Virus record (IMG/VR): IMGVR_UViG_3300037458_001078
Location: 1-47,785 of that record
Direction: 5' to 3' (one strand)
Length of the DNA stretch: 47,785 bases
DNA from: a virus
Taxonomy: Duplodnaviria; Caudoviricetes
Made by a program: the position numbers and the translations under genes
The notes under the pieces: generated by a model
Told to the model about the DNA's origin: nothing
What the model saw: only the letters and a program-made list of their open reading frames with translations
The model's database searches: none
In this document: piece after piece, positions 1,910-5,888 of the stretch
Layout of the letters: every line of letters starts with the position of its first letter
Position numbering within the stretch: the stretch's first letter is position 1

Positions 1910-2755
1910 TTAGTAGCCGCGAACGTTGCGGACAGTCACCACGTTCTCGAACGTTGCGCAGAGCACCGCGAGTTCCGTGGTCGTAAGCGGCTTAAACGCA
2001 TAGTCCCGGTCGGCCGGGATAGAGAACCCGAATTGACCGCCCTCGGAGCCATAGTAGAGACCGGTCACCGAGTTCTTGGCGAAATAGGTAGTCTCCGGGA
2101 GCGTCTTCAAAAGGGACTCCATCTCGTCGCGCTGACGAACCACCAGCTCCGCAATCTTGGCGAGGGAGTCCATTGAGTACGGCACCCCTTTGTAAGTAAC
2201 CGTACCATTCGTGTTTGGGAAAACGTTCATCAGGCCAAGCGGGGCGAGGACGGCCTTATTCTCTTCGGCCCAAACGAGGCGGGCAGCTTCCCGGTCCTTT
2301 TGCTCCTGCTTGGCATGCTCCTTCTTGTCCTCCTCCGACCGGAGGGTGGCGAGCTTGTCGAAGATCTTGTCCGCGAAGTCCGCATTCAGGGGAAACGCCG
2401 CCTCGCCCTTGGCCGGCTTGAAGGTGCACCACTTAGTCCCGGCGATGAACTTGAGGGAGGTCACTCGACCATAGCTTGAGTCTGAATAGAGCCCCACCCG
2501 ACCAAACGAAGTGTAGGCGAAGGCCGAGTAGGAGTTGACGTAAACCTCTGGGGTCATACCGTGCTTTTTGAGGATCTCCACGAGCGACGCCCTCAGGTCC
2601 ACCTGAATCGTTTGGCGAAGAGCCTCCTGCGCTTCCTGCTGGCGGATGCAATCCGTAGGCGCCCACTCGTTCATCAATCCCGCTTCAATTTCCGCCTTGT
2701 GGGTCAGGTTATACGCCGCGCAGTCAGCCGAACTTTTATCAACGATGATTTTCAT
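1910..2755 (-). CDS. Hypothetical early protein (281 aa)
   Basis: ORF lies between promoter cassette 3 and a terminator. Confidence 0.85.
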   Translation of the reverse strand: MKIIVDKSSADCAAYNLTHKAEIEAGLMNEWAPTDCIRQQEAQEALRQTIQVDLRASLVEILKKHGMTPEVYVNSYSAFAYTSFGRVGLYSDSSYGRVTSLKFIAGTKWCTFKPAKGEAAFPLNADFADKIFDKLATLRSEEDKKEHAKQEQKDREAARLVWAEENKAVLAPLGLMNVFPNTNGTVTYKGVPYSMDSLAKIAELVVRQRDEMESLLKTLPETTYFAKNSVTGLYYGSEGGQFGFSIPADRDYAFKPLTTTELAVLCATFENVVTVRNVRGY

Positions 2756-2870
2756 ATTTTCCGTATTCTAGTTTTTGGTTTTTCGTTTTCGCAGTCCCCG
2801 GTCATCGGGAACGGGGATACTATGGCTGAGACCGGGGGAAAGGTAAAGTATTATTTTCAACTATTTTTTT
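2753..2870 (-). promoter_or_regulatory. Promoter-leader cassette copy 3
   Basis: Near-identical to 409-519. Confidence 0.8.
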
Positions 2871-2988: not shown

Positions 2989-3111
2989 GCCGAACAGGGC
3001 GCTGCTGCGAATCCGCGCCCCGCTTGACGGCTCGGATGCAGCAGGTTCTATTATGGTTTCGGGGCTTTCAAAGTCTCGGTCGGCGCGGATCGGTGAGCTT
3101 CCGCGTTCGGC
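2989..3111 (+). mobile_element. attC-like site 1
   Basis: R'' GCCGAAC, L'' GCTGCTGC, stem ATCCGCGCC/GGCGCGGAT, L' GGTGAGC, R' GTTCGGC. Confidence 0.8.
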
Positions 3112-3320
3112 GCAACTGGTTCAACCGCTTCCCCGCCGAACACGTCTTCCCAGATTTCAGCGTGTCTCTCGCAGAACCGATGGCCGATGACCGCATCACG
3201 CTTGACTGCCGGGCGTCCGCATGGCGTGCCATAGCAGTCCATGATCCAGCCGCAATGCGCCGAACCAGGCGCTTCAGCCAACGGGCTGGGCAGTTCACTT
3301 TTGGGTGTATCCATAGTCAT
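3051..3320 (-). CDS. Cassette protein, Cys/His-rich (putative Zn-binding)
   Basis: Starts in the attC2 loop (ATGA-coupled) and ends in the attC1 loop; C..C..PCGRPA..FCERH pattern. Confidence 0.7.
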   Translation of the reverse strand: MTMDTPKSELPSPLAEAPGSAHCGWIMDCYGTPCGRPAVKRDAVIGHRFCERHAEIWEDVFGGEAVEPVAPNAEAHRSAPTETLKAPKP

Positions 3321-3356
3321 GGGTGCCCAGCCCGTTGCTGAGCTTGGTTGTTCTGC
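3259..3356 (+). mobile_element. attC-like site 2
   Basis: R'' GCCGAAC, L'' GCTTCAGC, stem CAACGGGCTGGGCA/TGCCCAGCCCGTTG, L' GCTGAGC, R' GTTCTGC. Confidence 0.85.
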
Positions 3357-3511
3357 CGCCGGGCGGAGCGCTTCTTCTTTCCGCGCTTCTTGCCCTTGGG
3401 CCATCCGCCTAGCTTCGCGTTATCACGCGCTGCTTGCGCCTTCGCAGGCGTCGAGATGCTTCCGAGCATCGCGGCGGCATTGATGGGTTTTCCGCAGTGT
3501 GGGCAGTTCAT
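3317..3511 (-). CDS. Small basic protein, probable DNA-binding regulator
   Basis: CPHCGK knuckle plus AAAMLG..AKAQAARDNAKLGGWPK basic motif; ATGA-coupled at both ends. Confidence 0.7.
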   Translation of the reverse strand: MNCPHCGKPINAAAMLGSISTPAKAQAARDNAKLGGWPKGKKRGKKKRSARRQNNQAQQRAGHP

Positions 3512-3765
3512 CGCTTGCATACCTTTTCCCACACTTCGCGCATGATTTTCAGGTTTCCGGCTTCTGCCACGTCTATCAGTTCGCGGGCCTTCTCAACCAA
3601 ATCGAGACGGACGGCCAGCGCACCTTTGCCGTATGTTTTTGTCCCGTGTTCCTCCATGTGTTCACATTCGCGTTCGCACAGAGTTGCCAGCACTCCAGCC
3701 ACGTCACTGAGGGATTGCTGATTCCACTCGGCTTCACTTGGGTCTCCGTATTCACGTAGATTCAT
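3508..3765 (-). CDS. Hypothetical cassette protein
   Basis: ATGA-coupled ORF inside cassette 3. Confidence 0.7.
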   Translation of the reverse strand: MNLREYGDPSEAEWNQQSLSDVAGVLATLCERECEHMEEHGTKTYGKGALAVRLDLVEKARELIDVAEAGNLKIMREVWEKVCKR

Positions 3766-3953
3766 GATGCCACCGTGAGTTTGATTGTTTTTCCGTCAAA
3801 GCTGGCGATATGGCGGAACAGCATTGATTCACCACTGTCCAGTGCGAACCCGTCGCGCTCTACGTCATTCACGCGGCCTTCCGCGATTTCGTCGTTGTAT
3901 TTGTTCAGCACCGTCACCGTCATCCCGACTTCGATTTCGTATTTCGTTTTCAT
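3762..3953 (-). CDS. Hypothetical small beta-rich cassette protein
   Basis: ATG at 3953 lies 6 nt downstream of a -10 box. Confidence 0.7.
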   Translation of the reverse strand: MKTKYEIEVGMTVTVLNKYNDEIAEGRVNDVERDGFALDSGESMLFRHIASFDGKTIKLTVAS

Positions 3954-4087
3954 GGCGCTATCATATACCCATCGCTGGGTATTGCAAGCACTATTTTCAC
4001 TTTTCTTCCGATTGTTTGTAAGTCGTTGACCGGACGGCAGAACCACCGCATGGAGCTAACCGCCGATTGCGCCTCAGGCGAGTTCAT
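3950..4087 (-). CDS. 45-aa bridging ORF (MNSPEAQSAV...YMIAP)
   Basis: Translated by hand; ATGA overlaps at both ends; starts in the attC3 loop. Confidence 0.45.
   Translation of the reverse strand: MNSPEAQSAVSSMRWFCRPVNDLQTIGRKVKIVLAIPSDGYMIAP
3960..3987 (-). promoter_or_regulatory. Sigma70-type leaderless promoter with a palindromic operator in the spacer
   Basis: TTGCAA-16 nt-TATGAT-6 nt-ATG; ATACCCA-N4-TGGGTAT at 3965-3982. Confidence 0.7.
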
Positions 4088-4126
4088 GGCGTTTTTGTCG
4101 GCGGTAGCTCATGCGGAGCGTTCGGC
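4037..4126 (+). mobile_element. attC-like site 3
   Basis: R'' GCAGAAC, GCATGGAGCTAACCGCCGA pairs with TCGGCGGTAGCTCATGC leaving two extrahelical bases, R' GTTCGGC. Confidence 0.85.
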
Positions 4127-4383
4127 GGGTAGTAGCGCAGCCGTGCTTTGACTGCGAACGCCCCACGTTTCATGGCGTCTTCTATTTCTTCGCGTCCGGG
4201 CCAGCCGAGCGCGATGCGCCATGCGTCGGCCTCGGTAGTCAGGTCGCTTCCGGTGACGATGTGGCCGTGAGGAAACACTACTGCCCACATATCGCGGTAG
4301 ATCGCCGAACAAGGCGATGGAGACGAACAGCCGCCCCGCGAGTCAGGCAAATCGGGCGTCGGGATGGGGCGGCTGTCGCTCAT
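4084..4383 (-). CDS. Hypothetical cassette protein
   Basis: ATG in the attC4 arm one nt after the upstream TAA; stop in the attC3 loop. Confidence 0.7.
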   Translation of the reverse strand: MSDSRPIPTPDLPDSRGGCSSPSPCSAIYRDMWAVVFPHGHIVTGSDLTTEADAWRIALGWPGREEIEDAMKRGAFAVKARLRYYPPNAPHELPPTKTP

Positions 4384-4397
4384 CTTAATCGTTCGGT
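4304..4397 (+). mobile_element. attC-like site 4
   Basis: R'' GCCGAAC, GATGGAGACGAACAGCCGCCCC / GGGGCGGCTGTCGCTCATC, R' GTTCGGT. Confidence 0.85.
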
Positions 4398-4666
4398 GGA
4401 AAAGCCTCACTTAGCAATTGCTCCATTCCGCGCCGAAGGTTTCCGAGTCTGGTTGCCCTGCCGTCACGCATTGGCCACAGGTTGCAGGCGAACACTAAGT
4501 CTTCGAGGTCTTGCTTCGAGAGTAGTGCCGCCACACCGCCATCTTCGAGCGCGGTCAGCAGTTTGTGTTCTATCACATCGCGGGTTGTCCGTTCCACCGA
4601 ACAAGGCGCTGGAGACGAACCGGCGGATCGCTGGTCTTCGTTTGGATTTCTGCGTGTTGTAGCCAT
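4385..4666 (-). CDS. Hypothetical cassette protein
   Basis: Start in the attC5 loop, stop inside the attC4 right arm. Confidence 0.7.
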   Translation of the reverse strand: MATTRRNPNEDQRSAGSSPAPCSVERTTRDVIEHKLLTALEDGGVAALLSKQDLEDLVFACNLWPMRDGRATRLGNLRRGMEQLLSEAFPPND

Positions 4667-4703
4667 AGGTTATTCGCGCCGGTCGCTCAGCTTGTCGTTC
4701 GGC
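4596..4703 (+). mobile_element. attC-like site 5
   Basis: R'' ACCGAAC, GCTGGAGACGAACCGGCG / CGCCGGTCGCTCAGC, R' GTTCGGC. Confidence 0.85.
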
Positions 4704-5014
4704 GGATACATCATGCGATGCTGGCGTTCGAGAGATTCACCGAGGCAGTCTCGGAAGTTCTTCCATTCGGTTTCTTTGCCATCGCGCTCGGATATTTGCC
4801 ACGCCGAGCGGCACAGGTCGTTTGCATCTACCAGCGCCGTCGCGAGCCTGCGGAGCGCAAAGGCTGCGTCCATCAGAGGCTTGCCGTAGGCTGCTTCGCC
4901 ATTGTCAGCATGTTGGAGCGCGGACATTTCGAGTTGGTCAGCGAGTTCCATTTCCGCCGAACAAGGGCGCTGCACCGAATCCGCGCCCCGCTTTGCGTTT
5001 GATGTCTTGCTCAT
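4670..5014 (-). CDS. Hypothetical cassette protein (first gene of the array)
   Basis: MSKTSN start at 5014 in the remnant loop of attC6; stop in the attC5 loop. Confidence 0.7.
   Translation of the reverse strand: MSKTSNAKRGADSVQRPCSAEMELADQLEMSALQHADNGEAAYGKPLMDAAFALRRLATALVDANDLCRSAWQISERDGKETEWKNFRDCLGESLERQHRMMYPPNDKLSDRRE
4956..4993 (+). mobile_element. Truncated attC-like site 6 (left arm only)
   Basis: GCCGAACAAGGGCGCTGCACCGAATCCGCGCCCCGCTT, very similar to the left arm of site 1; right arm absent, promoter cassette 4 lies just beyond. Confidence 0.7.
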
Positions 5015-5046: not shown

Positions 5047-5137
5047 GGTTTTCGTTTTCGCAGTCCCCGGTCATCGGGAACGGGGATACTATGGCTGAGA
5101 CCGGGGGAAAAGTAAAGTATTAGGTTCAACTATTTTT
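5047..5137 (-). promoter_or_regulatory. Promoter cassette copy 4 (diverged, lacks the 3' leader/ATG), facing the attC array
   Basis: Shared core GCAGTCCCCGGTCATCGGGAACGGGGATACTATGGCTGAGACCGGG. Confidence 0.75.
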
Positions 5138-5372: not shown

Positions 5373-5888
5373 ACGCGTGAATTTCACGCGTCAGTCCATC
5401 GCCTCGTTTTATCAACACAAACCCTAACTCGTACTCAAATTCTCAGCAACTTTAACGGTATTTTAAGACCATCGGCTCTCCTTTAACGCAATTCCCAAGG
5501 ACTTCCATTCCGCGATTACTCTGTCGTCTTGTTACATCATGGTAATGCCCAGTAGGGGTGGGGCAAACCCTATATTCTACTACTCCCGCTTAACTCACTT
5601 AACCTAAAAAAGTTGATTCCCCCGGCTTGATCGGCTTTTTAGCGACTTAACCTCAAAAAGTGCTAAACCCCTACACCTGCTAGGCCACGCTTAACGTACT
5701 CGACATCAGACCCCTTTTTTCGGCCGTCCAGCCTCCAGCCAAAACCTGGAGCGCCCTTCTGAGGTTAAGTACGTTAAGTACGTTAAGCGTGGCCTAGCAG
5801 GTGTAGGGGTTTAGGAGTCGGCCTAAACGGCTGAGGTTAAGCCGCCTAAGCCGAGGTTAAGCCGAGGCTACGCGTGAAATTCACGCGT
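5373..5888. other. Noncoding inverted-repeat region: candidate origin or packaging/genome-end site
   Basis: Palindromes ACGCGTGAA-N-TTCACGCGT at 5373-5391 and 5870-5888; perfect 38-bp inverted repeat at 5663-5700/5777-5814; many CTTAAC/GTTAAG motifs. Confidence 0.6.

Follow-up and report, generated by a model that had tools for sequence, protein, structure and literature searches.

Integron cassettes are taught as promoterless, self-complete genes that lie upstream of their own recombination site, attC. Canonical attC sites fold into an R''-L''-loop-L'-R' hairpin with extra bases in one arm, recur as direct repeats along an array and are crossed over at G|TT (features described in PMC5027507 and PMC4889954), and the integrase IntI cleaves their bottom strand within the AAC of the R' box (PMC5027507). 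Clusters of attC sites lacking an integron integrase (CALINs) have already been published from phages, and the bottom strands of other phage attC sites recombine with attI1 (Qi et al. 2023, PMC9892861). Here, we describe an attC array in IMG/VR virus record IMGVR_UViG_3300037458_001078 (Duplodnaviria; Caudoviricetes), whose full 47,785 nt, hereafter the window, represent the whole virus record with direct terminal repeats (completeness estimate, 75%). The array shares the hairpin, the one-arm extra bases, the direct repetition and the G|TT crossover of canonical arrays and, like the arrays of Qi et al., is an attC cluster without intI in a phage genome. Its genes, however, are encoded on the attC bottom strand and read through the crossover in one fixed frame into the attC site of the neighbouring cassette.

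The attC sites of the array

Five attC sites and the remnant of a sixth make up the array, which a first-pass annotation, made by a model from the sequence alone, had begun at 3051 but which starts with attC1 at 2989. Bit scores below are from a covariance model built from 50 of 79 picked bacterial attC sites.

2989-3111, plus strand: attC1, 123 nt, crossover G|TT at 3105; the weakest site, containing the stop codon of the gene at 3320-3051
3259-3356, plus strand: attC2, crossover at 3350, ATGA at 3317-3320; 64.9 bits
4037-4126, plus strand: attC3, crossover at 4120, ATGA at 4084-4087; 39.9 bits
4304-4397, plus strand: attC4, crossover at 4391, TAA-G-ATG at 4381-4387; 45.7 bits
4596-4703, plus strand: attC5, crossover at 4697, TAA-CCT-ATG at 4664-4672; 42.9 bits
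4956-5046, plus strand: attC6 remnant, with R'', left arm and loop kept and the right arm and R' replaced by a cut leader repeat (D1, described below)

In all five sites, the R'' and R' core boxes (AAC / GTT) close an imperfect hairpin with the L boxes. The left (R''/L'') arm is the longer one in 5/5 sites and carries the extra bases, and since this holds for each site the plus strand is the top strand. The covariance model points the same way: four of the sites score 39.9-64.9 bits on the plus strand and at most 16.5 on the minus strand, with plus ahead by about 29-48 bits where both strands scored. The polarity of the bacterial sites used in the model is itself backed by their cargo: of 96 bacterial cassettes, 73 have their longest open reading frame (ORF) on the top strand and 17 on the bottom strand, and 6 have none. 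The attC6 remnant is 93% like the left arm of attC1. With five same-strand sites in 1.7 kb and no intI, the element is a CALIN (at least two sites within 3-4 kb, no intI) of genuine-looking attC sites.

Genes that end in the neighbouring attC site

Between 5014 and 3051, eight minus-strand ORFs follow one another in an unbroken chain; two of the gaps are +3 and +1 and the other five are -4. The features of the cassettes are the following.

4670-5014, minus strand: cassette 5 gene (114 aa), from a conserved but uncharacterised family; begins in the cut attC6 and crosses attC5 as P-N
4385-4666, minus strand: cassette 4 gene, 93 aa; starts in attC5 and ends P-N-D in attC4
4084-4383, minus strand: cassette 3 gene (99 aa), likewise from a conserved but uncharacterised family; begins in attC4 and crosses attC3 as P-N
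3950-4087, minus strand: 45-codon leader ORF between two ATGA overlaps, one in attC3 and one at the start of the gene beginning at 3953; no Pfam match
3960-3987, minus strand: sigma-70-like promoter match, TTGCAA-16-TATGAT, inside cassette 2
3762-3953, minus strand: cassette 2 first gene, 63 aa; starts just past the promoter-like site, possibly leaderless
3508-3765, minus strand: cassette 2 middle gene, 85 aa; ATGA overlap at either end
3317-3511, minus strand: cassette 2 last gene, 64 aa, basic, CxxC start; crosses attC2 as Q-N
3051-3320, minus strand: cassette 1 gene, encoding a Cys/His-rich protein of 89 aa; begins in attC2 and crosses attC1 as P-N

The first-pass annotation had noticed that the ORFs run antisense to attC and read through the sites, and this observation is confirmed: five genes cross R', the conserved AAC of R' is read in frame as Asn in 5/5 minus-strand ORFs and the stop codon falls inside the neighbouring attC in 5/5. 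Four junctions were also said to hold the next start; the motifs are present at the positions given (ATGA twice, TAA-G-ATG and TAA-CCT-ATG), but the ATG at 4087 opens only the 45-codon leader ORF, which is likely a spacer peptide rather than a protein. Finding 5/5 in one named frame has a probability of 0.004 at 1/3 per site and of 0.046 against a codon-usage null, and a stop with an open ATG within 8 nt occurs at 4/5 sites of the window, compared with 6-9% per site in shuffled attC interiors. A canonical cassette has an ORF that is encoded on the top strand of attC, upstream of the cassette's own site, and that is complete between two crossovers, whereas the genes here lie on the bottom strand and their stops lie beyond the crossover (5/5). 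Cassette 2 (3351-4120, 770 bp) is a three-gene module with its own promoter-like site, although promoter matches (two found, 0.8 expected in shuffles) are weak evidence alone. In a related contig, 204 other bases stand in place of the middle gene of this module.

The minus-strand ORFs could be shadows in GC-rich DNA, the array being an ordinary captured bacterial CALIN with its true genes on the plus strand or absent. Long plus-strand ORFs do exist (4111-4662, 4482-4889 and 4565-5002, one of them the longest in its cassette), and no cassette ORF has a passing match or function in PHROGs or Pfam. The substitution pattern, in contrast, shows a synonymous bias and zero stops only in the minus frame: across eight homologous loci, the cassette 3 gene has 125 synonymous, 78 non-synonymous and 0 stop changes in the called frame, whereas the best plus-strand frame has 110, 82 and 18. 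Synonymous changes make up 6/7 substitutions in the last gene of cassette 2 and 5/8 in its first gene; in the middle gene they make up 4/4, but equally so in the plus-strand shadow frame. In addition, protein families are conserved in the minus frame, the annotated phage genes (terminase, portal, primase, DNA polymerase and thymidylate synthase, from PHROGs) are all encoded on the minus strand, and the seven junctions have gaps of only -4 to +3. On this comparative evidence the minus strand is the coding strand of the array, in line with the first-pass annotation, which had named expression of the plus-strand ORFs as fatal to its reading. The shadow-ORF explanation is already largely refuted and we regard it as highly improbable.

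A shared reading frame among phage arrays

The window was compared with a viral set of 316 loci from four pattern scans and a bacterial set of 156 loci from one scan, pattern-selected for the same attC type. Both were processed with the same arm-pairing finder (score at least 16.5, strand margin at least 1.5), which misses decayed and short sites; the matches of a right-arm-only pattern were mostly due to chance. After score, strand-margin, flank and duplicate filters, the viral set comprised 131 sites (64 loci) and the bacterial set 211 sites, while 26 sites (six loci) from two related isolate-derived records with a long homogeneous array were set apart.

At the viral sites, the main incoming gene crosses as Asn in 97 cases and in other frames in 5, stops at or before the crossover in 26 and is absent in 3. 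The Asn frame is thus used by 97/102 phage read-through genes, compared with 47/153 bacterial ones, in agreement with the lock across arrays that the first-pass annotation had anticipated. Scored instead by the longest bottom-strand frame over R', the Asn frame is found at 99/120 viral sites (11 without any frame) and 54/171 bacterial sites (40 without any). The 26 sites set apart show no clear lock (frames 12/8/6), and a simple count that includes them gives 111/146. A set chosen by protein likeness yielded 6 good sites in 29 loci, all with antisense genes (3 Asn crossings, 2 early stops and 1 without a gene), and the longest ORF lies on the bottom strand in 48/58 viral cassettes. The lock is confined to R': at the R'' box, where no bottom-strand exchange is expected, outgoing frames are distributed 31/43/39. 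Frame lock at the crossover is, in these sequence sets, general among phages and absent from bacterial arrays of the same attC type.

The junctions show a second regularity. The Asn frame meets a stop inside attC at 125/131 viral sites, compared with 79/131 for each other frame and 82/211 for bacterial sites. A long Asn frame with sufficient flank is available at 98 sites, of which 6 are without an outgoing frame, 21 lack its ATG and 71 are measurable; the gap from stop to ATG is at most 8 nt in 60 of these 71 and takes the form ATGA in 41, whereas the other two frames reach such gaps in only 11 and 4 of 71. As a separate observation, counted without a null, 7 of 18 viral genes that stop short of R' have a start codon overlapping their stop at -4 in the Asn frame, which would encode a tiny bridging peptide across the crossover.

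Codon usage does not suffice to explain the lock. In core genes of this phage, AAC is in frame in 283/522 cases (~54%), compared with the 95% observed (p 2e-20; sites not independent), and with one site per cluster the Asn frame is found in 48/57 (p 1.5e-6). Clustering by shared 60-mers reduced the 64 loci to 61 and did not merge all loci of one contig, and therefore the p-values overstate independence. The same numbers bear on the idea that the bias is a footprint of cassette birth, in which IntI recombined attC into an AAC near the 3' end of a phage gene, mostly in an Asn codon, with coupling never selected. The frequency of in-frame AAC in core genes, the existence of homologues without PN or attC and the insertion of cassettes by IntI1 at short GWT genome sites (reported in 10.1101/2022.09.11.507474) are all in keeping with such an origin. 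A footprint of this kind, however, accounts for about 54% of sites and not 95%, and it leaves the Asn-frame stops and the ATGA junctions unexplained. We consider it improbable as the whole explanation, although cassette birth may still have decided which frame was adopted as the convention.

Tails, heads and exchange points

Different tails behind a common core were predicted by the first-pass annotation and are found among homologues. The cassette 5 family comprises 9 proteins (self included), all with a core ending in YPPN and with 9/9 tails distinct; a search for viral loci of this family gave none. The cassette 3 family has 29 proteins including self, of which 20 have cores that end in PN, followed by 20 distinct tails, and 9 do not (one of these is cut short and one shares the head only); three members (P0018-P0020) have near-identical heads and cores and three different tails. 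For the last gene of cassette 2, 29 viral loci are related, and the tail after the Asn differs in several of them. A search for relatives of the cassette 1 protein returned only itself among 2 candidates. Protein conservation stops at PN, and the DNA follows the same boundary: the flanks of six homologues diverge from the window at G|TT, and a foreign estuary contig matches cassette 2 from exactly 3350, with a different arm before that position. Two further cassette families likewise carry three different tails each, one DNA methyltransferase-like (L022:2927, L450:3497, L471:5012) and the other (L003:3384, L006:4000, L010:4638) presumably so.

Exchange of this kind might not involve an integrase at all, the attC arms serving as homology linkers through which phage homologous recombination swaps genes and the shared frame being a by-product of arm likeness. 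No integrase is encoded in the record, IntI passes its cut-off in only 3/36 related records, the heads vary and not the tails alone, and Qi et al. raise off-target homologous and illegitimate recombination for the uptake of phage CALINs (PMC9892861). Homology linkers, however, would let likeness end inside the arm, and it ends at G|TT; the shared fraction of first tail residues is no higher among near-identical cores (0.11) than among distant ones (0.14); the lock is found at R' and not at R''; and the polarity of the extrahelical bases is preserved. Taken together, these points make recombination through the arms unlikely as the source of the pattern.

Homologues P0010-P0034 of the gene at 4084-4383 combine one core with several unrelated, attC-derived N-terminal heads, P0038 carries the window's head on a different core, and across the cassette 3 family overall core identity predicts neither head nor tail identity. 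The attC sites may be replaced at R'' as well.

Relatives that encode IntI

Three of 36 related records encode IntI above the NCBIfam cut-off and a fourth falls just below it. In locus coordinates, the four genes lie at L471 2271-3182 (minus), L423 1530-2510 (minus), L311 5972-6922 (plus) and L321 377-1348 (minus). In 4/4 of these phage records, intI is encoded on the strand of the cassette genes and downstream of them. The polarity of attC relative to intI is canonical, and it is the genes that are flipped and run towards intI. The AAC just before intI is again read as Asn, and in 2/4 records the frame so read ends at an ATGA that overlaps the start of intI; the intI-adjacent sites may act as attI. 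Downstream of a cassette 3 homologue, the sequence of L474 past the crossover has 13 nt in common with the intI-adjacent site of L321, and some tails may therefore derive from attI.

A proposed model for exchange between genes with predicted coupling

We think it probable that this is an integrase-less array of a phage type, in which an external IntI exchanges cassettes at G|TT and selection holds the shared frame in place to keep translation coupled. The genes lie on the attC bottom strand, each beginning in its own attC, crossing the junction as Asn and ending in the attC of the neighbour. An IntI supplied from outside, by the host or by another phage, likely exchanged cassettes at G|TT. This cut would fall within a codon, with AA contributed by the cassette and C by the neighbour; because the cut lies inside the Asn codon, any cassette that uses the Asn frame would inherit the resident tail, stop and stop-to-start spacing. 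The shared frame is likely kept by selection, because an incoming stop would then adjoin the resident start and keep translation coupled, and the Asn frame would become a self-reinforcing convention under selection for termination beside the next start. Reshuffling by an integron enzyme would thus likely be possible without breaking the predicted chain of coupled translation, and the tails are likely neutral by-products.

The first-pass annotation had gone further, treating every attC as a portable translational coupler that keeps the operon intact in any cassette order and makes each C-terminal tail depend on the neighbour. As an interpretation of sequence this appears partly supported and is overstated as an every-site rule. 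The frame does stay intact in any order (25/25 in-silico pairings), which follows by construction from the geometry. Coupling is suggested by the stop-start spacing at most sites, but attC1 is startless, 21/98 sites lack the outgoing ATG and 11/71 have a gap of more than 8 nt. Dependence on the neighbour agrees with the differing tails but does not extend to the 26/131 incoming genes that end at or before the crossover and therefore have no neighbour-derived tail.

A number of observations weigh against the exchange model. Among the viral sites, 5/102 read-through calls are off-frame, 26/131 genes stop before crossing and the outgoing ATG is missing in 21/98. In the window itself, attC1 reaches only 11.5 bits in the covariance model (E 0.94; arm-pairing score 18) and has no next start, and the longest ATG ORF lies on the plus strand in 1/4 complete cassettes. 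Neither intI (no PF00589 match) nor attI was seen in the record; the tyrosine recombinase family PF00589 is found in 0/1 here and in 14/14 control genomes, the completeness estimate of the record being 75%. Only a single cassette order is present in two source runs (one 2240-nt contig spans the array), with no alternative order, and the RNA contigs described below are unstranded and partial, showing neither strand nor level, with coverage gaps that are uninformative. A finder-callable attC is kept by only 1/12 homologue loci of the cassette 3 gene and by few of the 29 loci of the cassette 2 gene, and many copies have therefore decayed or were never cassettes. Finally, the N-terminal heads of cassette 3 homologues vary too, untied to core identity (rho -0.09), which bottom-strand exchange alone does not explain.

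A broader and more tentative idea, which we hold to be somewhat doubtful, is that phages have an integron dialect of their own and act as a source of cassettes: IntI would cut an Asn codon near the end of a gene, an attC would be re-fitted before the gene and a community-wide frame convention would let any cassette fit any operon. If so, a gene family that occurs both free-standing and in cassettes would show the states before and after cassette genesis.

Genome setting and borders of the array

The array is bordered on either side by copies of a leader repeat, D1.

2743-2867, minus strand: D1 leader repeat copy, 125 nt; marks the downstream border of the array and lies ahead of the next gene, possibly as its promoter
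2870-2988, no strand assigned: geneless remnant of a further cassette, judged from sequence and translations, perhaps in part a decayed attC arm
5047-5136, minus strand: cut D1 leader repeat copy, positioned to drive the minus strand of the array as a putative promoter

A consensus promoter scan of the minus strand did not call the D1 copy at 5047-5136. The stretch at 2870-2988 is unlike the intI-adjacent sites displayed from related records (by-eye comparison). The cut in attC6 falls within its arm, which makes it likely that the block was connected to the phage's leader repeat in a one-time recombination without an integrase, one that would have left no attI. The D1 repeat (125 nt, with an internal hairpin-like stretch) has seven cores in the window, at 443, 1627, 2791, 5060, 9058, 23736 and 29541; four of the five copies displayed end directly at the ATG of a minus-strand gene, and longer repeats of 126-146 nt flank it at 1-126, 517-662 and 1700-1915. 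The non-coding stretch before terL contains a perfect 38-bp inverted repeat at 5662-5815 and 20-nt palindromes at 5372-5391/5870-5889, possibly an origin or packaging region.

PHROGs revealed no integrase among the 58 ORFs of the record, and blastn against annotated phages gave no match; the cassette 4 protein has no match in the ESM Atlas. Of the words sampled from the region, 99% are present in three wetland DNA runs, which may be where it comes from; low shares recorded for other habitats were disregarded. A joint of 3284 to 4682 in two source runs was not accepted as an excision, one of its sides being only 23 letters long. Parts of the array, among them the attC3 junction, are represented in RNA contigs from three metatranscriptomes; one such contig lies over 3050-3304.

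Comparison with known systems

No paper on reversed, frame-locked phage cassettes was found in a search that lay largely outside subscription journals, and the layout is not described in the accessible parts of PMC13323075 and PMC11511950. In the text of Qi et al., the gene strand relative to attC, the frame and coupling are not discussed and the words 'opposite' and 'antisense' have 0 matches, although its figures may show arrows (PMC9892861). Among the arrays of that study, the tested TJE1 array has the canonical layout, whereas the ctTUS972 array appears reversed, uncommented there, with three low-scoring sites. The published phage CALIN L498 (MW202573, 1860-3738) has an apparently reversed layout in which two annotated genes cross as Asn and one gene stops in the R' box, with low site scores of 11.5-14.5. 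The attC type of the window resembles that of Planctomycetota arrays, with the limit that the bacterial comparison set was pattern-selected.

The closest functional likeness is to ORF-11 and ORF-18 of attI1 in class 1 integrons, where, as far as PMC8876359 describes them, a frame reads across the crossover, is terminated by a stop in the partner and links its translation to that of the following gene. ORF-11, however, is a single 11-residue peptide at attI on the top strand (PMC8876359), whereas here whole genes on the bottom strand are concerned, at most attC junctions and in one frame common to many phages, with coupling predicted from geometry. Inverted-integrase integrons resemble the related IntI-bearing phage records in that intI and the cassette genes are co-oriented, but in the former, on the description in PMC4889954, intI is flipped relative to attC, whereas in the phages the polarity of attC to intI is usual and the genes are flipped.

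Compared with canonical cassettes (as described in PMC5027507 and PMC4889954), the bottom-strand genes start in their own attC and end in that of the neighbour, and the unit has no stop codon of its own and a frame that is fixed at the crossover. These units depart from two defining features of canonical cassettes and therefore represent a new variant of the integron cassette. The variant would account for recurring phage proteins that are alike up to 'PN' and diverge in their tails, and it predicts that such cassettes would be silent behind Pc in a bacterial integron and expressed in a phage operon. Gene families that exist both as cassettes and outside them make the question of cassette origin testable. 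The rule amounts to translation imposing a constraint on a DNA recombination site: in this class of phages the standard layout is inverted, with the recombination point inside the coding sequence and the frame fixed over many genomes.

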